A program made the translations under genes and the position numbers. DNA of 64,000 nucleotides from Shigella phage ESh26: sequence record ON528736. One strand, written 5' to 3'. The notes under the pieces are model-generated. The model ran no database searches. It had not been told where the DNA came from and saw only the letters and a list, made by a program, of their open reading frames with translations. This document shows positions 3,144 through 56,640 of this stretch, one piece after another (within the stretch, counting starts at the first letter, position 1; each line of letters opens with the position of its first letter).

Positions 3144-3506
3144 TTAAAAGAATTTAAATTTTTTCTTTGACCTTTTATTAAATGCATCTTGTAGTTGCAT
3201 TGTAATACATTTTTCTACATGAGGAGCTAACTCAGCTTTTCTTTCTTGGTCAAGAACAGCAAAGTCCATTACGACTTTTCCATCAACCCAATCTAATTTT
3301 GTCACATACACAATGTGTGTAGAACCGTCTTCTAGTTTAATGACAATCTCCTGGATAACATTTTCCATGGCAGATTTAATTATCTTAAGAGATTCATTAA
3401 AAAGACGTTCTTTTCTTTCTTCTTCCCCCTCCGAAGAGGGGGATTCATCGATAATTTCTAGATCTAAATCTAAATCATCTTTATTCATTAAATTCTTCCA
3501 TATCAC
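3144..3506 (-). CDS. small acidic protein at gene 40 position
   Basis: 120 aa ORF between uvsX and 41. Confidence 0.45.
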   Translation of the reverse strand: MIWKNLMNKDDLDLDLEIIDESPSSEGEEERKERLFNESLKIIKSAMENVIQEIVIKLEDGSTHIVYVTKLDWVDGKVVMDFAVLDQERKAELAPHVEKCITMQLQDAFNKRSKKKFKFF

Positions 3507-4662
3507 TTAACTGATCTAGGTCAGTTTCTAAATCAGCTGCTGATTTACTTTTACTTTCTGGAGATTTAAATTTTTCAACCTTTGAGTTAATCAATTCATC
3601 AACTTCAGCTTCAACAATTTCATTACTATCAATAGCACCTAACTGATAAGCACGTTTAATAGCATCTCGGAATGGCTGATGCTTAAATAAAGGACCCCAG
3701 AATGTAGTGCAGTTGGTATCTTTTGCACGCCAAGATTTTTCTTCGCGAATCATCTCACCGGTTTCTTCGTCAAGAAATTCACGAGCATACCAGCCATTTT
3801 TAGGTTTTACCACAAATCCTAATTCTAGAGCCATATCTAACAATCCAGAATAAGGATCGATGCCACCGTCAAATTTAACATCAATAAAGAATTTACTTTT
3901 TTCTTTAACGGTACGAGATTTTTCTACATTTAGAACAAATTGATACCCCTGAAGATCAGAACCATCTTTAATCTGGCGCTTACCGATAATGAATACGGTA
4001 TCAGCCGAATACATTACGCCTGTACCACCTGTCATCACGGTTTTACTAAACATTTCAATTGTTTCAATTGTATGGTTAACCGCAACGCATGGAATGTTTT
4101 TAATACTAAAATAAGGAGTAACAATACGGAATAATGACTTCAGTGATTTAGCACGAGTCATATCTGCTACAGATTTTTCATTCAAGGCATCTTCCGTTTC
4201 TTTCTTAGAAGCCATATTACCGATTGAGTCGATGAATACAATAACTTTTTCACCGCGCTCAATAGCTTCAAGCTGATTCACCATATCAATTTTCAGCTGT
4301 TCAACTGACTGAATTGGTGTATGAATTACTCGTTCCGGGTCAACTCCCATGGATCGCAAATAAGCTGGAGTAATACCAAATTCGCTATCATAAAATAGAC
4401 AAACCGCGTCAGGATATTTGTTCAAATACGCCGCAACCATAGTCAAAGACATATTTGATTTAAAGTGTTTAGAAGGACCTGCAAAAATGGTTAAACCAGA
4501 CTGCATACCACCATCAATCGCACCAGAAATAGCGATATTAAGCATTGGGATTTTTGTACGGATTACATCCTTTTCATTAAAGAATTTAGATGCAGTCAGT
4601 TCAGCAGTCATTTTAGAAGTGGAAGCTTTAATCAAACGGGATTTTAAATCTGCAATAGACAT
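3481..4662 (-). CDS. uvsX: UvsX recombinase (RecA/Rad51 family)
   Basis: 393 aa, MSIADLKSRLIKASTSK..., near-identical to recalled T4 UvsX. Confidence 0.95.
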   Translation of the reverse strand: MSIADLKSRLIKASTSKMTAELTASKFFNEKDVIRTKIPMLNIAISGAIDGGMQSGLTIFAGPSKHFKSNMSLTMVAAYLNKYPDAVCLFYDSEFGITPAYLRSMGVDPERVIHTPIQSVEQLKIDMVNQLEAIERGEKVIVFIDSIGNMASKKETEDALNEKSVADMTRAKSLKSLFRIVTPYFSIKNIPCVAVNHTIETIEMFSKTVMTGGTGVMYSADTVFIIGKRQIKDGSDLQGYQFVLNVEKSRTVKEKSKFFIDVKFDGGIDPYSGLLDMALELGFVVKPKNGWYAREFLDEETGEMIREEKSWRAKDTNCTTFWGPLFKHQPFRDAIKRAYQLGAIDSNEIVEAEVDELINSKVEKFKSPESKSKSAADLETDLDQLSDMEEFNE

Positions 4663-4739
4663 TCATTTTTTCCATAGGCATCATTATATTTTCCTCACTG
4701 GTTAAAGATAGAGTAATTATAACACAATAAATTTAGGCA

Positions 4740-5582
4740 TTAATCGACTGCTATTGGATGAATAGCATTAAACTTATGAAACGCTTCTGATTTTTCTTTG
4801 CGTGAAACACACATGCGAAGAACCTTTAATGGCTCGTCTTCTTCACCCAACGATTTTCTCTTTTCGATATTCGATGTTTTCCAACGAGCTTGCTCTGGAA
4901 ACTCTCTATTGATTTGCTCAAGAGCTCTATTATGTTTTGAATTACTACGAATTGAACTACATCCGCCAGGAGCTTGTGCTTTTCCAGATACAACCAGATA
5001 TTTGAACAAGGCCAAATGCGGATAACCTTGATTAATTAAATTGAGAAATGCATACATATCTTCGCATAAATCAATTTTTCCATACCCAATTTGTTCTGTC
5101 GTGAGTTTTCCAAGGTCATACCATGTATTCGTGAATCCATATGAATTTTCACGATAATTACCCCAAGATGAAGTAATTTTAAAAATTGGTAGACGAGCAT
5201 GGCCATGATAATACCCACAATCCATGGCATCTTCAACGTATTGAATCAATTCATAGAACTGTTCACGAGTTAATTGATTAATTTTATCTACACAGCGACG
5301 ATCATCTTTCTTTCGCATTGAACTCATACGAATAGTAGTATCATCGTCAATCATCCAGATTCGTTGACCTGCATACATATCAGTAATTGCTTTACGAGTA
5401 CCAGCAATTCCATTAACATCATCAGGAATAGTTATAATTTTGGCTTTAGACCCGTAAGCGTCATAATAAGCTTTTTCTTCGTGTTCACGTACTACAATAT
5501 GAGGTTCATAATCAGTCGGAAACATATCAAGGGCAGAAACTGCCCCTACGCGTTGATAGCTTGGAATTACGAATTGAATCAT
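4740..5582 (-). CDS. DNA glycosyltransferase, not T4 beta-gt; possibly T2/T6-type beta-1,6-glucosyl-alpha-glucose transferase
   Basis: 280 aa from ATG 5580-5582 (track start 5588 is GTG); DxD-like motif WMIDDDTTI; occupies beta-gt locus between uvsX and 42. Confidence 0.5.
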   Translation of the reverse strand: MIQFVIPSYQRVGAVSALDMFPTDYEPHIVVREHEEKAYYDAYGSKAKIITIPDDVNGIAGTRKAITDMYAGQRIWMIDDDTTIRMSSMRKKDDRRCVDKINQLTREQFYELIQYVEDAMDCGYYHGHARLPIFKITSSWGNYRENSYGFTNTWYDLGKLTTEQIGYGKIDLCEDMYAFLNLINQGYPHLALFKYLVVSGKAQAPGGCSSIRSNSKHNRALEQINREFPEQARWKTSNIEKRKSLGEEDEPLKVLRMCVSRKEKSEAFHKFNAIHPIAVD

Positions 5583-6319
5583 TTCCACTCACCATTATAA
5601 TCTTTTTTCACAATATGAGTTTCGCCAGTATTCCACCAATGATCAACCAAGTAAAAATGACGAGAATATACATGAAGACTTCCAACATTCCATATAATAG
5701 AACCTGCTTTATACTGACGAGTTGAATCACCTGCATTCAAATCAGATACTAATTTATCTAGTACGTATTTTTGCCATGCATAATCATTACGGAATCCGAA
5801 GACAACGTCATTTGAACGCATGCTCACTACTGCATTGACTTTCTTATCACGAATCAGGTACTGTACTGTATTCGTACACATGAAATCTGACATACCATCT
5901 TTATTGTAGTCAAACTGCATGGATGGACGAGTATAAATCATGATACCGCGTCGAGAATCAGGATTTTGACCAAGTTCAGCTAAACACATATCATATTGGG
6001 CATAGTTATCTTCTGACCAGATGGCCCAACCATAATTCGAATTAATTTCGCCTTTAGAAGATGCTACCTGTTGCCAAATCTTCGGTGTTTCACCTGGAAT
6101 ATCTTTAACAAACAAACTTTTAGATTTATACCATTCAAGTTCACGCTGAATGTATTCATCATTAAGAGCGCCAAAAATAAATGGTTCATCTGCTACAAAT
6201 GATGCGCCAATAATTTCAATAGTTTTAACGCCAGTTTTATCAACTACGAAATCTTTTTCCTTTAATGCAAGCCCCAAATGAAGACGGATTTCTTCAACTG
6301 TCATAGAGTCACTAATCAT
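5579..6319 (-). CDS. 42: dCMP hydroxymethylase gp42
   Basis: 246 aa, thymidylate-synthase-like fold, T4 synteny. Confidence 0.9.
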   Translation of the reverse strand: MISDSMTVEEIRLHLGLALKEKDFVVDKTGVKTIEIIGASFVADEPFIFGALNDEYIQRELEWYKSKSLFVKDIPGETPKIWQQVASSKGEINSNYGWAIWSEDNYAQYDMCLAELGQNPDSRRGIMIYTRPSMQFDYNKDGMSDFMCTNTVQYLIRDKKVNAVVSMRSNDVVFGFRNDYAWQKYVLDKLVSDLNAGDSTRQYKAGSIIWNVGSLHVYSRHFYLVDHWWNTGETHIVKKDYNGEWK

Positions 6320-6472
6320 TTAAACCTCAATTGATACATTCATATTTAACTTGTAACAGTAATAAACCCCAACCTATAATAAGTGTCGGAATCATACAAG
6401 GAACCGTTACGCTATAGTATATACTTATTATAATCATCAAGATTAAAAGCAATACTGCTAAAATTTTGCTTT

Positions 6473-6724
6473 TCATTCCTTCTCTCTGATGATAATTACT
6501 TGATTCGGTTGTGCAGATTTTTTAGTTTCACCCGCAATTGACCAAATAAATGTAATAAACCAACCAATAATTGACCAATTAAACAGTAAAGATGTGAAAA
6601 AGATTCCTACTGTCGATTTTGACCCACGCATCAAGGCGATGAACCACGGAAGCATGTATATAATGATAGCCAACACGCCTGAAACTAAAACCATAAAAAT
6701 TGAACCTGCTACTAAAGTTTCCAT
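6473..6724 (-). CDS. imm: immunity to superinfection membrane protein Imm
   Basis: 83 aa, two hydrophobic helices, position between 43 and 42. Confidence 0.8.
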   Translation of the reverse strand: METLVAGSIFMVLVSGVLAIIIYMLPWFIALMRGSKSTVGIFFTSLLFNWSIIGWFITFIWSIAGETKKSAQPNQVIIIREKE

Positions 6725-7112: not shown

Positions 7113-7122
7113 AATAATTTCC

Positions 7123-7380
7123 TCAAATACAAGCAGTAATTACTCCAGTAGTGCTTACACAGGTATTACCTAATTGAACACCAAGCGTTCCATTAGTATT
7201 CATATGAAGATTATCATCAATTTTTGTTGATACTTTACCATTCATGTGAATAACAGTATTAGATTCAATCACATTCTGAGTGTCATTTTCAATATCAATA
7301 AATGGAACAGCTGCTAATGCAACTAGAACAACTGCTAATGCAACTAAACACGCTGCTAAACAACCATAAACAATTTTCAT
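7123..7380 (-). CDS. small membrane protein
   Basis: 85 aa from ATG 7378-7380 (MKIVYGCLAAC...), early promoter and SD directly upstream; the longer track ORF would read through the promoter. Confidence 0.5.
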   Translation of the reverse strand: MKIVYGCLAACLVALAVVLVALAAVPFIDIENDTQNVIESNTVIHMNGKVSTKIDDNLHMNTNGTLGVQLGNTCVSTTGVITACI

Positions 7381-17222: not shown

Positions 17223-17240
17223 AAAGGGCCGAAGCCCTTT
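17223..17240 (-). other. UUCG-tetraloop hairpin downstream of a-gt
   Basis: AAAGGGC-UUCG-GCCCUUU overlapping a-gt stop. Confidence 0.5.
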
Positions 17241-18441
17241 ATTTTGTAATAATGTCAAACTGTTCTTTAAAGCAGAAGCTTGAATCTTGATGCTGATACA
17301 AAAATTCATAAGCTTTTTCGCGTTCACGGTCATAAAGAGCTCGGTCAGATGACAGTTCTTTAATACGCTCAAATGTTGATTCCATGTCATTTTCATCAAA
17401 CCAAACGATACCGCTATCATGAGAAATTAACGGAGTATTATCAACACGGAATTTTAAATTTTCGCCAGTAGATTTCCAAAATACCGGAATTGTTCCGCAC
17501 GCACCAAGCTCGAGATGAGTATATTCTAAAGAACGTTGTAGATATTTTTTGTCCAACTTACTCAACTGATAACCAAATCCGGATTTACTCATGCGTTCAA
17601 GCATTTCGCTATTTACATAACGGTCGAGAATTTGCGTTGGCAAATTAGGAGCAATTTTAATTTGGTCTACTTGATGAAGACGATAATACTCGTATGGAAT
17701 TCCTTTTTCTTTAATAGGAATGAACGCTGGAGAACGTTCCAGACCTTCCATAATAGTACTTAGTCCAGCAGGTTTAAGATGTTTTTCGTGAAAATCAAAC
17801 ATCTGATAAAAGCCTTTCCATGTAGTCGTACGACCAATCCAACGGTTGACATTCATGTTAATTTCAGAAACATCTTTCCAGTATGTTGATCGAACTTTCG
17901 CAATATCCATAGGAGGCTGAAAGTTGTATACGGTCGGTGCTTCTTCAATATCATCAAACAGAGAAACTGTTTCTGGATACCATTCTTTCATCAGAACTTT
18001 ATTAAAATCACCATTATCAGAATGACTAAAAATAACATCAGCTCGGCGAACAGTTTCTTCTAATCCCAAATTTCGACGCAAAGAAAGAGAAGAATGGTCA
18101 TGTTGATAAACTACAACACGAACCGAAGGTTTAATGTTATCAATAATTTTTTTATAGTTATTAATAGTGTCTTCTTCGACTGAAGTAGCAGGAACTGAAT
18201 TGATAATTAGAATATCACAATCATTTACCAGCTTAAGTGTTTTATCGTATTCTTTTGCCAATAAAACCGGAATTGAAAATGATTTATAATCATGCGCGCA
18301 ATTACGTGTAAATGATTTATCTTTAGCATAAACCAAAGTTACTTCATGACCATTTTTAATAAACCAATCACGCTGCTCAAGAGAAAATTTAGTTACGCCG
18401 CAACCTTCAAGACCTCGAGCCATAAAAATGCATACTTTCAT
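17239..18441 (-). CDS. agt: DNA alpha-glucosyltransferase
   Basis: 400 aa MKVCIFMARGLEGCGVTKF..., near-identical to recalled T4 alpha-gt. Confidence 0.85.
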   Translation of the reverse strand: MKVCIFMARGLEGCGVTKFSLEQRDWFIKNGHEVTLVYAKDKSFTRNCAHDYKSFSIPVLLAKEYDKTLKLVNDCDILIINSVPATSVEEDTINNYKKIIDNIKPSVRVVVYQHDHSSLSLRRNLGLEETVRRADVIFSHSDNGDFNKVLMKEWYPETVSLFDDIEEAPTVYNFQPPMDIAKVRSTYWKDVSEINMNVNRWIGRTTTWKGFYQMFDFHEKHLKPAGLSTIMEGLERSPAFIPIKEKGIPYEYYRLHQVDQIKIAPNLPTQILDRYVNSEMLERMSKSGFGYQLSKLDKKYLQRSLEYTHLELGACGTIPVFWKSTGENLKFRVDNTPLISHDSGIVWFDENDMESTFERIKELSSDRALYDREREKAYEFLYQHQDSSFCFKEQFDIITK

Positions 18442-22951: not shown

Positions 22952-24765
22952 TGGTGTTTAACCCTATGCATGATTTCTTTATTTTTGCCGAGATTAAATC
23001 CGCGTTCGTTCGGATTTCCCAAATAACCACAAGTTCTTCTTATTGTGTTCATCTTTTTAGGATCAGTTTCTCCACAAATAGAACAAACAAATCCGTTTTC
23101 AGTAGGAGTCATTTCATGGGTACTTCCACATGTAAAACATTTATCTACTGGCATATTAACGCCAAAATAATCTAAATGTTGTGCAGCATAATCCCATACA
23201 GCCTCAAGACCTTTTAGGTTATTTTTCATATCAGGAAGTTCAACATAAGAAATGTGACCGCCTGTCGCAATGAAATGATATGGTGCTTCGCGAGAAATCT
23301 TTTCAAACGGAGTGATATTTTCTTCTACTGAAACATGGAAACTGTTAGTGTACCATCCTTTATCAGTAACGTCTTTTACACTTCCATATTTTTCAGTATC
23401 AAGTTTACAGAAGCGATAACAAAGGTTTTCAGCAGGTGTAGAATACAAACTAAAAGCAAAACCGGTTCTTTCAGTCCACTGTTTAAGACGAGCATTCATT
23501 TTAGTCAAAATTTCCTGTCCAATATCACGACCGACAAGAATATTCAATTCGTGAATACCAATGTATCCTAGGGACACTGAACTTCTACCGTTTTTAAATA
23601 ACTCAATTATGTCGTCATCAGGTTTAAGACGAACCCCGAATGCACCTTCTTGGTAAAGAATAGGAGCAACAGTCGCTTTAACTCCTTTTAAGGAACTAAT
23701 TCTACACATCAAAGCTTCAAAACACAAATCCATTCGTTCATTGAACAATTCGGTAAATTTCTGTTCATTGAACTGTGTTCCAATATAAGAATCTAATGCG
23801 ATACGAGGAAGATTCAGTGTTACAACACCGAGATTATTACGTCCATCAAGAATTTCATTACCAGTCGAATCTTTCCATACACTCAAGAAACTACGGCAAC
23901 CCATTGGAGAAACAGGAATAGATGAACCGGTGATAGCTTTATTATTCTTAACTGAAATAATATCAGGATACATTCTTTTGCTTGCACACTCTAGAGCAAG
24001 CTGCTTAATATCATAGTTCGGATCGTCTTTATAAAGATTAACGCCTTCTTCAACGAACATAACAAGTTTAGGGAAAATAGGAGTTATCCCATCGCGACCA
24101 AGGCCTTTAATACGATTTTTCAGAATTGCTTTCTGAATCATTCGTTCAGTCCAGTCAGTTCCCGTACCAAACGTAATTGTCACAAAAGGCGTTTGCCCAT
24201 TTGAACTAAAGAGAGTATTTACTTCATATTCATAAGCTTGGAATGCATCGTATACGTCTTTTTCTGTTTTAGATTGAGCGTAATTCAACGCATCAGCGAT
24301 TTGCCATTTTTCTGCATCCTCAATATGTTTTGCATAGGTGCGTTTAACATAAGGAGAAAGTACTTTATCTACATTAGCAAAAGTCGTTCCGCCATATTGA
24401 TGAGAAGCAACCTGCGCAGTAATTTGTGCCATAATTGCAGTAGCAACGCCGATTGATTTAGGAGTTTCAATCTGTGCATTACCGAGCTTAAATCCGTTTT
24501 CAAGCATTCCTTTTAAATCTACTAAACAGCAATTAGTAAATGGAAGAGCAGGGGAATAATCAATATCATGGAAATGGATAATTCCGCTTTCATGTGCTTT
24601 CATAATAAAAGACGGGACCATATTTTTGGCAATGTGTTTAGACACAATACCAGCCATAAGGTCCCGTTGAGTTGGAAAAACACGAGAATCTTTATTAGCA
24701 TTCTCGTTCAAAAGGTCTTTATTAGTTTTATGAATCAATCCTTCAATTTCTTTTTCAATTGTCAT
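22948..24765 (-). CDS. nrdD: anaerobic ribonucleoside-triphosphate reductase NrdD, uninterrupted
   Basis: 605 aa continuous ORF, C-terminal Zn ribbon and glycyl-radical region. Confidence 0.95.
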   Translation of the reverse strand: MTIEKEIEGLIHKTNKDLLNENANKDSRVFPTQRDLMAGIVSKHIAKNMVPSFIMKAHESGIIHFHDIDYSPALPFTNCCLVDLKGMLENGFKLGNAQIETPKSIGVATAIMAQITAQVASHQYGGTTFANVDKVLSPYVKRTYAKHIEDAEKWQIADALNYAQSKTEKDVYDAFQAYEYEVNTLFSSNGQTPFVTITFGTGTDWTERMIQKAILKNRIKGLGRDGITPIFPKLVMFVEEGVNLYKDDPNYDIKQLALECASKRMYPDIISVKNNKAITGSSIPVSPMGCRSFLSVWKDSTGNEILDGRNNLGVVTLNLPRIALDSYIGTQFNEQKFTELFNERMDLCFEALMCRISSLKGVKATVAPILYQEGAFGVRLKPDDDIIELFKNGRSSVSLGYIGIHELNILVGRDIGQEILTKMNARLKQWTERTGFAFSLYSTPAENLCYRFCKLDTEKYGSVKDVTDKGWYTNSFHVSVEENITPFEKISREAPYHFIATGGHISYVELPDMKNNLKGLEAVWDYAAQHLDYFGVNMPVDKCFTCGSTHEMTPTENGFVCSICGETDPKKMNTIRRTCGYLGNPNERGFNLGKNKEIMHRVKHQ

Positions 24766-51154: not shown

Positions 51155-51230
51155 CTCACTTAATTGGTCGAGGCAGTAGGGATCGAACCTACGACCTAGG
51201 ACTTAGAAGGTCCTTGCTCTTCCTTCTGAG
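51155..51230 (-). tRNA. tRNA-Arg (anticodon UCU)
   Basis: hand-folded cloverleaf, 76 nt, T-loop TTCGATC, CCA encoded. Confidence 0.85.
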
Positions 51231-51234
51231 CTAT

Positions 51235-51310
51235 GCCCCGTAATTGGGGTGACCGATGGGGGTCGAACCCATGACTACGAGAATCACAATCTCGAGTTCT
51301 ACCAACTGAA
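51235..51310 (-). tRNA. tRNA-His (anticodon GUG), no encoded G-1
   Basis: hand-folded, 7 bp acceptor GTGGCCG/CGGTCAC, C73, CCA encoded. Confidence 0.75.
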
Positions 51311-51423
51311 CTACGGCCACATTAATACCTACTCCAACAATCAAGATGTCTTCACACGAAATTAAGAGAAGAGTGATCAGTTCAACCCTATAATCGCGTC
51401 AAGTAGATATTAATGTGACAGTT
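51311..51423 (-). ncRNA. 113 nt spacer inside tRNA cluster, possible small stable RNA
   Basis: no ORF; palindrome TGTGACAGTTGTCACA; lies between tRNA-Asn and tRNA-His. Confidence 0.2.
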
Positions 51424-51498
51424 GTCACAAATTTGGCGGACGTGATAGGATTCGAACCTATAACCAATCGCTTAACAGGCGATCGCTCTGCCATTGAG
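51424..51498 (-). tRNA. tRNA-Asn (anticodon GUU)
   Basis: hand-folded, 75 nt, anticodon loop CTGTTAA, CCA encoded. Confidence 0.8.
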
Positions 51499-51502
51499 CT
51501 AC

Positions 51503-51589
51503 ACATCCAAATTGGTGGGGAGTGATGGAGTCGAACCACCCGAGTCGCAATGACAATGGATTTACAGTCCACACCGCTACCTCTACGGG
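51503..51589 (-). tRNA. tRNA-Tyr (anticodon GUA), long variable arm
   Basis: hand-folded, 87 nt, loop CTGTAAA, class II variable arm. Confidence 0.8.
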
Positions 51590-51602
51590 ATAACTCCCCT
51601 TA

Positions 51603-51677
51603 ATTCTTAATTTGGTGGCCCTGGGTGGAATTGAACCACCATCTGGCGATTATGAGTCGCTTGCTTGAACCTTCCAG
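51603..51677 (-). tRNA. tRNA with CAU anticodon (Ile-lysidine type by position, or Met)
   Basis: hand-folded, 75 nt; follows Thr as tRNA-Ile does in T4. Confidence 0.75.
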
Positions 51678-51678
51678 C

Positions 51679-51754
51679 TACAGGGCCTTGGTGCTGATTG
51701 ACGGAATCGAACCGCCGACCTTCTCATTACAAGTGAGTTGCTCTACCTACTGAG
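51679..51754 (-). tRNA. tRNA-Thr (anticodon UGU)
   Basis: hand-folded, 76 nt, loop CTTGTAA. Confidence 0.85.
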
Positions 51755-51759
51755 CTAAA

Positions 51760-51849
51760 TCAGCAAAACTGGCGGAGGCGATAGGATTTGAACCTATGAG
51801 TCGCCGGAGCGACTGCCGGTTTTCAAGACCGGTGCATTAAACCACTCTG
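51760..51849 (-). tRNA. tRNA-Ser (anticodon UGA), long variable arm
   Basis: hand-folded, 90 nt. Confidence 0.85.
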
Positions 51850-51851
51850 CC

Positions 51852-51925
51852 ACGCCTCCAGTCTCCATACAAGGATTTGAACCTTGGACCTCCTGATCCC
51901 AAATCAGGCGCTCTACCAAACTGAG
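51852..51925 (-). tRNA. tRNA-Pro (anticodon UGG), CCA not encoded
   Basis: hand-folded, 74 nt, loop TTTGGGA. Confidence 0.8.
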
Positions 51926-51935
51926 CTACACGGAG

Positions 51936-52101
<166 letters not shown>

Positions 52102-52102
52102 C

Positions 52103-52175
52103 CATTCTCGCGCTGGGAATAAAGGACTCGAACCTTTGCATCCTGGAATCAAAATCCAGTGCCTTACCAACTTGG
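52103..52175 (-). tRNA. tRNA-Gln (anticodon UUG), CCA not encoded
   Basis: hand-folded, 73 nt, 5' UGGGAAU. Confidence 0.85.
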
Positions 52176-52282
52176 CTAATTCCCAATTATTAACAAAGGC
52201 TCTTAAGCAAGAACCCTTGATGATAGAGGGTATTAATCAGTGCGATATGAGTTAATAATAACAAATAATTCTTAAAGCATAT

Positions 52283-53228: not shown

Positions 53229-53462
53229 TTATTTTTTACGAAAAATTGATTTATTTTCTGCTGCCCATTTTTCAATAACTGCAGCAGGACCAGTAACAAC
53301 AATTTTATCACCGTAATCTTCTGCGGCGAGTTGACCGAAATTATCTAATGCATCACGAAGAACTCCATAAGGCATTTCACCCATTTTATCTTTCTTGCCA
53401 GTGTAAATAAACTCAACTTTTACATCAGAAGATTCAGCGATAAACTCTTTGAAAGTTTTCAT
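53229..53462 (-). CDS. internal protein (capsid-targeting leader)
   Basis: 77 aa from ATG 53460-53462, MKTFKEFIAESS; early promoter upstream. Confidence 0.55.
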   Translation of the reverse strand: MKTFKEFIAESSDVKVEFIYTGKKDKMGEMPYGVLRDALDNFGQLAAEDYGDKIVVTGPAAVIEKWAAENKSIFRKK

Positions 53463-53494
53463 TTTGATTTCCATTTGATTTTGTTTTGATAGGG

Positions 53495-53526
53495 TAATAG
53501 TATCACTACTAAAACCCTGTGTAAAC
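53495..53526 (-). promoter_or_regulatory. T4-type early promoter
   Basis: GTTTAC -35, GATACTATTA -10. Confidence 0.6.
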
Positions 53527-53538
53527 AACTTTGTGAAA

Positions 53539-53796
53539 TTATTTTAAATCTTCTAATCGTTTCTTCATCTTAGAACCATTTTTAGCAATTTCTCCTGCAT
53601 CGGAGCATAACGCTAAAAGTGCTTTAACTTTAGTTTGGTCTCCTTTAAAAGATGAAGGATCGACTGCAGCAGCAAGTTCTTTAATACGAGAGAAAAGACG
53701 CTCAGCTTCAGCTAAAGCCATTCCAAGCTTTACTTCCATACCGTGAGAAGATTCAGTGATAGTAGTTTTTGTAGCAAACTCTTTGAAAGTTTTCAT
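53539..53796 (-). CDS. internal protein (capsid-targeting leader)
   Basis: 85 aa MKTFKEFATKTTITESS; early promoter upstream. Confidence 0.55.
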   Translation of the reverse strand: MKTFKEFATKTTITESSHGMEVKLGMALAEAERLFSRIKELAAAVDPSSFKGDQTKVKALLALCSDAGEIAKNGSKMKKRLEDLK

Positions 53797-55965: not shown

Positions 55966-56640
55966 TTAATTTATTAGACTTCTTAAACGAGCAGAAGTCA
56001 TAAATGGAAATTTTTCTAAAGTTGGCTTTCGCCAATATCTTGGATGACAAGTTGATTTAAAATCAAGAACAATTTTCTTTGCTTCATCAATAGTGTTAAC
56101 TCCAAAGTTATCTAACATTATTTTCTTTTCTTTTTCCCACCGTTTATTAGCTAAAGCAGATTGAAGCTTTTTGTTTTTAAATGTGTCATTTTTTCTAGAA
56201 TGAGTTGTGCCTTGTGTCGGACTCCATCCTCTTCCTAAAATAAATCCCTCAGGAATTATATCTCCATCATGTAATTTTATACATCTTTTACCATTATTAT
56301 AATATTTTCGTCCAGTTTGTGTATTTGAAATATTATTTGCATGTTTTCTTTTTAACCAACCATAAACTTTATTATTTCTCCTAACATATTTAGTTGAAAC
56401 CGTCATTTTTATGGCTGCATAAGATAATTTTAAAGAATTTGGGTGTATTTTTACTAATAGCTGATGTGCAACATAATGCTCTTCTGGAGTTAAATCAACC
56501 AAGTTAGAAGCATCATTACTACCGCCTAAACATTTCGGAATAATATGATGTCTTTCTTTATATCCAGTAAGGGCTCTATTGCGAGCCCTATCAATTAGTG
56601 AATTATAAATTTTTTCATAATTCATCGTACATTGCTCCAA
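55966..56640 (-). CDS. free-standing HNH endonuclease (homing-endonuclease-like)
   Basis: 224 aa; [37 protein letters not shown] motif; basic C-terminal half; between genes 3 and 2. Confidence 0.6.

Follow-up and report, generated by a model that had tools for sequence, protein, structure and literature searches.

Genes between uvsX and gene 42

The window, by which we mean the whole stretch of 64,000 nucleotides from Shigella phage ESh26 (sequence record ON528736) that was analysed, carries an ORF for a 280-aa protein between uvsX and gene 42. An earlier note, made from the sequence alone, had placed such an ORF there, and this was confirmed: it runs from 4740 to 5582 on the minus strand and overlaps gene 42 in an ATGA. 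The order of the flanks uvsX and gene 42 is the same as in T4, T2 and T6, and the slot between them holds ba-gt in the Tequatrovirus phages T2, T6, TB37, EH2 and Geo. The features of the window needed here are the following:

3481..4662, minus strand: uvsX recombinase, 393 aa, which marks the locus on the downstream side (ORF; DNA 90% identical to that of T4 uvsX as far as window position 4650)
4651..5596, minus strand: cassette of 946 bp without T4 DNA homology (the BLASTN alignment with T4 ends at 4650 and starts again at 5597)
4740..5582 including the stop codon, minus strand: gene read here as ba-gt (other names ggt, g-gt, TAGT), beta-glucosyl-HMC-alpha-glucosyltransferase, 280 aa (ORF; identity to T2, T6 and KIT03; PHROG 842; PF20691; predicted GT-A fold)
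5058..5063, minus strand: codons of Glu174-Asp175, the ED motif (D175 in 99 and E174 in 81 of 99 homologues)
5331..5357, minus strand: WMIDDDTTI, residues 76-84, a DxD-type motif read from the sequence, with the codons of D79-D80-D81 at 5340-5348
5550..5552, minus strand: codon of Arg11 in the N-terminal IPSYQR motif (Arg in 99 of 99 homologues, His in T2)
5579..5582, minus strand: ATGA overlap of the gene 42 TGA (5581-5579) with the ba-gt ATG (5582-5580), from sequence and ORF coordinates
5579..6319, minus strand: gene 42, dCMP hydroxymethylase, 246 aa, the upstream neighbour (ORF; 95% DNA identity to T4 gene 42)
17239..18441, minus strand: a-gt, 400-aa alpha-glucosyltransferase, T2 allele (identity to T2; annotation in the best DNA matches)

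In the ORF list the frame opens with a GTG and covers 4740..5588 on the minus strand (282 aa). The ATG at 5582, two codons inside, yields the 280-aa protein that begins MIQFVIPSYQR, and it is also the start annotated in homologous records, whose matches span all 843 nt. The overlap with gene 42 is annotated alike in T2, TB37, EH2 and Geo, and its arrangement suggests translational coupling of the two genes. The gene 42 product itself gave weak matches to the thymidylate-synthase family, as expected for a dCMP hydroxymethylase. In nine pairwise comparisons of ba-gt, 21 to 43 of the 26 to 47 nucleotide differences were at third codon positions, and 21 to 43 codon changes were synonymous versus 3 to 8 that were non-synonymous; this dominance of third-position and synonymous changes shows that the ORF is a genuine gene that evolves under purifying selection. 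Two plus-strand ORFs within ba-gt (4798-5025 and 5364-5600) were rejected as antisense noise, and the third-position variation fits the minus-strand frame.

A scan for sigma-70 promoters and terminators around ba-gt, which covers no T4-type middle or late promoters, returned 12 sites compared with 9.8 ± 2.8 in shuffled sequence and thus no excess. The minus strand directly after the ba-gt stop codon (intergenic region 4663-4739) reads ATGCCTAAATTTATTGTGTTATAAT. There, a MotA-box-like TGCCTA was seen by eye 12 nt upstream of a TATAAT, and together these two elements may form a T4-type middle promoter of uvsX.

Identity and predicted fold of the 280-aa protein

Direct alignment over the full 280 aa gave 98.2% identity to the ba-gt of T2, and the identity to the ba-gt of T6 was 97.5% over the full length. 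Both of these enzymes have the same length of 280 aa and an alpha-gt as partner, and their genes lie at the same uvsX/gene 42 locus and overlap gene 42 in the same way, as is the case here. The T2 and T6 ba-gt sequences were reportedly determined by Winkler and Rueger in 1993; in UniProt they are found as Q06717 and Q06718 (cited in PMC6024577). With the protein annotated as ba-gt in Escherichia phage KIT03, the window protein shares 100% identity. Moreover, a megablast search with the gene found 479 phage records with 90-99% identity, many of them annotated as beta-glucosyl-HMC-alpha-glucosyltransferase, and a tblastn search with the protein found 689 phage records, 94 of which had at least 99% identity. 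PHROG 842, which bears the same name, was matched at 4.9e-89. [quoted passage not shown]

Neither ba-gt nor alpha-gt has a model in NCBIfam, but the Pfam profile PF20691 (TAGT, TET-associated glycosyltransferase) matched ba-gt with 38.8 bits (gathering cut-off, 27.5) over residues 3-207, corresponding to positions 2-205 of the 205 profile positions. The TAGT family has a GT-A fold and is a sister to GT2. Judged from its score, the window protein is a divergent member, and it has about 70 additional C-terminal residues (208-280) past the Pfam domain. A word-indexed protein search gave just 11 relatives; therefore, the deep alignment was built from an exhaustive, profile-free search of representatives, which gave 339 relatives of ba-gt, and the 99 full-length ones, down to about 20% identity, were aligned. 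R11, D80, D175 and G207 are invariant in all 99 family members, and I6, P7, R63, D79, D81, G186, G206 and R212 are kept in at least 90%. All of these residues are present in the window protein.

The DxD-like motif WMIDDDTTI to which the earlier note had pointed was found at residues 76-84. Motifs of the DxD type bind the metal and the nucleotide sugar in GT-A enzymes. D80 of the window motif is invariant, D79 and D81 are each present in 98 of the 99 family members, and in the structure model the three aspartates are located at the end of the predicted strand E74-78. By analogy, DDD 79-81 is probably the motif that binds the metal and the nucleotide sugar. By analogy to GT2 enzymes, E174-D175 is a candidate for the catalytic base of an inverting GT-A enzyme. 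The predicted structure indeed has a GT-A fold with a single Rossmann-like domain, and the two domains of a GT-B fold were not seen in the model. A sequence search for a solved structure of a TAGT relative found none.

The differences from the characterized enzymes are few. Five substitutions separate the window protein from the ba-gt of T2, among them R11 and P251 (H11 and S251 in T2); six substitutions separate it from the ba-gt of T6 (AP018814), in which one Asp of the DDD is absent in addition. None of the changes on the side of the window is at a conserved position. The Escherichia phages TB37 and EH2, for which DNA analyses are published, have a ba-gt that is 98.9% identical, with K46, K92 and I101 of the window as the sole differences in the protein, and 36-37 nucleotide changes in the gene that are mostly synonymous. 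These three private substitutions are conservative and fall into variable columns of the alignment. Taken together, we are highly confident that the ORF is the intact ba-gt of an ordinary T2/T6-like Tequatrovirus, acting with alpha-gt in a pathway to gentiobiosyl-hmC. A ba-gt at this locus is already known; it is ordinary and present in most T4 relatives. The sequences annotated so far include an identical protein and near-identical genes in the hundreds, so the window ba-gt adds nothing new.

Predicted glucosylation of the phage DNA

Gene identity, predicted fold and conserved residues come from our own analysis; for the chemistry we rely on the literature on T2, T6 and their close relatives, and from these we infer the quantitative pattern. 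The alpha-gt of the window is 98.8-99% identical to that of T2, 99.0% to those of TB37 and EH2, 91.2% to that of T6 and 90.8-91% to that of T4. The earlier note had called it T4-like, which holds as far as 90.8-91% identity goes, but the gene is the T2 allele. Gene 42, alpha-gt and ba-gt are present together and intact, so that the gene set for making the expected acceptor accompanies the enzyme.

In phages of this type, alpha-gt glucosylates about three quarters of the hmC, and ba-gt adds a beta-1,6-linked glucose to give gentiobiosyl-hmC (PMC6024577, PMC11078745, bioRxiv 10.64898/2026.02.25.707755). HPLC/MS of Tequatrovirus DNA from phages with alpha-GT and TAGT but without beta-GT found hmC, alpha-glucosyl-hmC and gentiobiosyl-hmC and no beta-glucosyl-hmC (PMC13390438). 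In the window phage, gene 42 would make hm-dCMP, and replication would place hmC in the DNA. The T2-type alpha-gt would then put an alpha-linked glucose on about 70-75% of the hmC, and the resulting alpha-glucosyl-hmC would be the substrate of ba-gt. With UDP-glucose as the donor, ba-gt would by analogy extend this first glucose by another one in beta-1,6 linkage, so that gentiobiosyl-hmC is formed. Indirect support for such a transfer comes from the MS data on close relatives (PMC13390438) and from T6 mutants with a deleted ba-gt (PMC11078745, bioRxiv 10.64898/2026.02.25.707755). The mechanism, again by analogy, would be that of an inverting GT-A enzyme, with the DDD binding metal and UDP-glucose and E174-D175 acting as the base. 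Because b-gt is absent, no beta-glucosyl-hmC would arise, and the share of hmC that stays bare would be about a quarter to a third.

How much of the glucosylated hmC carries the second glucose differs between phages with much the same enzymes:

Window: T2-type alpha-gt; ba-gt with R11 and P251, 98.9% identical to that of TB37 and EH2
T2: T2-type alpha-gt; ba-gt with H11 and S251; about 5% gentiobiosyl
T6: T4/T6-type alpha-gt; ba-gt with R11 and P251; about 72% gentiobiosyl
TB37 and EH2: T2-type alpha-gt, 99.8% identical to that of T2; ba-gt differing from that of T2 at residues 11 (R) and 251 (P) only
Geo: T4/T6-type alpha-gt; ba-gt with eight differences from the window; intermediate, 1:2:2 (PMC13390438)

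The DNA of TB37 and EH2 contains about two thirds gentiobiosyl-hmC and about one third bare hmC, with alpha-glucosyl-hmC at background (PMC13390438). Since the window matches these two phages in both enzymes and keeps Arg11, we predict from the sequences, with moderate confidence, that its DNA is T6-like and mostly gentiobiosylated rather than T2-like and mostly monoglucosylated. However, the two enzymes of T2 are almost the same (98.2% and 98.8% identical), and yet T2 has only about 5% gentiobiosyl-hmC; the ratio is therefore not set by sequence identity alone, and the expression level or other loci could matter.

If ba-gt worked at the low level seen in T2, the DNA of the window phage would be mostly alpha-monoglucosylated with a few per cent of gentiobiosyl-hmC. 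The T2 allele of alpha-gt and the closeness of ba-gt to its T2 counterpart speak for this, as does T2 itself, whose DNA has about 70% alpha-glucosyl-hmC and about 5% gentiobiosyl-hmC (bioRxiv 10.64898/2026.02.25.707755, PMC6024577). We consider it unlikely, since TB37 and EH2 reach about two thirds gentiobiosyl-hmC with a T2-type alpha-gt and a ba-gt that departs from that of T2 at residues 11 and 251 only (PMC13390438), and R11 and P251 are exactly what the window shares with them. Moreover, the His11 of T2 replaces an arginine found in all 99 aligned homologues of the TAGT family, and it is accompanied by P251S. A 40-nt probe for the His11 allele, designed so that each of its 28-mers covers the base, found only seven T2 records, which come from several laboratories, and SV76; apart from SV76, the allele is thus confined to T2 stocks. 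Because the R11H allele is confined in this way, and because of the alleles and the DNA data of TB37 and EH2, we put forward the hypothesis that R11H may be a hypomorphic change that explains the low gentiobiosylation of T2. Going further, and only tentatively since we give it somewhat less than an even chance, the window enzyme would be fully active and convert alpha-glucosyl-hmC almost completely to gentiobiosyl-hmC, and the difference between T2 (about 5%) and a T6-like pattern (about 70%) would be due to the T2-private R11H and not to the alpha-gt allele or gene dosage. If this is true, the extent of gentiobiosylation of any Tequatrovirus, the window phage included, could be read from its ba-gt sequence. 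IMG/VR contributed five related loci only, too few for allele statistics.

Lesions of ba-gt were also seen in records of T6. In AP018814, an in-frame deletion of 3 nt in GATGATGAT turns the near-invariant DDD into DD, and in MH550421, codon 10 of ba-gt is a TAG stop and 'ggt' is annotated as truncated. Judged from these records, laboratory T6 stocks may carry ba-gt lesions and differ in gentiobiosylation.

A transferase of the TAGT family could in principle use another acceptor or donor, for example by acting directly on bare hmC or by transferring another sugar. TAGT homologues are known from many phages that lack alpha-GT as well as beta-GT, and the family is not tied to one acceptor (PMC13216743). 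At 97-100% identity to enzymes of phages with known DNA chemistry, a change in specificity is very unlikely; the three private substitutions are conservative and fall at variable positions, and alpha-gt, the maker of the expected acceptor, is present. We therefore regard such a divergent specificity as highly improbable.

That the ORF might be a diverged or truncated T4-type beta-glucosyltransferase of the GT-B type, adding a single beta-glucose to hmC, is suggested by nothing but its position in the slot of T4 b-gt and has a negligible probability, since BLASTP found no similarity between the two proteins (best E = 3.3), DNA homology is lacking across the whole cassette, the predicted fold is GT-A and not GT-B, and the Pfam match is to TAGT and not to the b-gt family. 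A degraded b-gt was ruled out by BLASTP, BLASTN and the predicted fold alike. The view of the earlier note that the protein does not resemble T4 beta-gt therefore stands, and the significant alignment that it had named as a refutation is absent.

T4 b-gt occupies the syntenic slot beside gene 42, uses UDP-glucose and makes a beta linkage on modified phage DNA, but it is unrelated to ba-gt in sequence and fold, and it glucosylates the hydroxymethyl group of hmC, whereas the acceptor of ba-gt is the glucose of alpha-glucosyl-hmC. The GT-B structure of T4 b-gt is available as PDB 1JG7 (cited in PMC13216743). T4 does carry the 351-aa b-gt at this locus, as the earlier note had said, but also segA, a homing endonuclease gene that it had omitted, and the T4 cassette that holds both is 1941 bp long compared with 946 bp here. 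The homology to T4 ends at 4650, within the first codons of uvsX, and sets in again at 5597, where six codons of gene 42 are left. The earlier note was thus right that a different enzyme occupies the beta-gt locus but took T4 as the norm; the combination of alpha-gt and ba-gt is the majority state in Tequatrovirus, and T4 is the exception.

A short match to T4 was found at the 3' end of ba-gt. T4 positions 24238-24262 match window positions 4738-4762 over 25 nt (23 of 25 identical; E of about 1e-4 in a small search). The stretch comprises the last codons of ba-gt, the stop codon and the two following bases, and in T4 it directly precedes the start codon of segA. Judged by sequence, it seems to be the remnant of a ba-gt displaced by b-gt and segA in the T4 lineage, and it would fit a descent of T4 from an ancestor with ba-gt.

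Host defences and other features of the window

As ba-gt decides the sugar pattern of the phage DNA, it also decides which host defences can see that DNA. The earlier note had expected the altered modification to change which restriction systems are blocked, and published deletions of T6 ba-gt, named delta-ba-gt in PMC11078745 and delta-g-gt in bioRxiv 10.64898/2026.02.25.707755, back this. In vitro, DNA with gentiobiosyl-hmC is resistant to the glycosylase Brig1, and T6 delta-ba-gt is more sensitive to Brig1 (PMC11078745). The glucosidase BapA cannot strip the gentiobiose from gentiobiosyl-hmC, and the bare hmC that is retained by phages without b-gt is the target of Brig3 (bioRxiv 10.64898/2026.02.25.707755). 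Enzymes of the GmrSD family cut all these forms of hmC (PMC13216743, PMC13390438). The annotation of ba-gt in the window is therefore useful for the prediction of host range or the choice of therapy phages.

No orthologue of T4 IPI, which acts against GmrSD, was found at its usual position in the window. At this locus (53229-53796, minus strand), which is flanked by 57B and the tRNA cluster, two small proteins of the head interior or virion are encoded (PHROG 3499 and 8111), which have only the N-terminal targeting peptide MKTFKEF in common with IPI. The tRNA cluster (51165-52185, minus strand) has 11 genes (Arg, His, Asn, Tyr, Met/Ile-CAT, Thr, Ser, Pro, Gly, Leu and Gln), compared with 8 in T4, the additional ones being those for His, Asn and Tyr; segB, which interrupts the cluster of T4, is not apparent in it. 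At 55966-56640 on the minus strand, adjoining gene 3, an ORF of 224 aa with matches to the HNH family (PHROG 655 at 2.8e-59) encodes a homing endonuclease; at this point, genes 3 and 2 of T4 are separated by a gap of only 106 nt. Between imm.1 and gene 43 (7113-7372, minus strand), about 260 bp without a T4 counterpart encode a predicted membrane protein of 82 aa (PHROG 4189). Finally, the interval from gene 42 to imm contains a hydrophobic ORF of 49 aa (6327-6476, minus strand; PHROG 3610); this ORF is annotated in TB37, EH2 and Geo but not in T4, despite 95% identical DNA.
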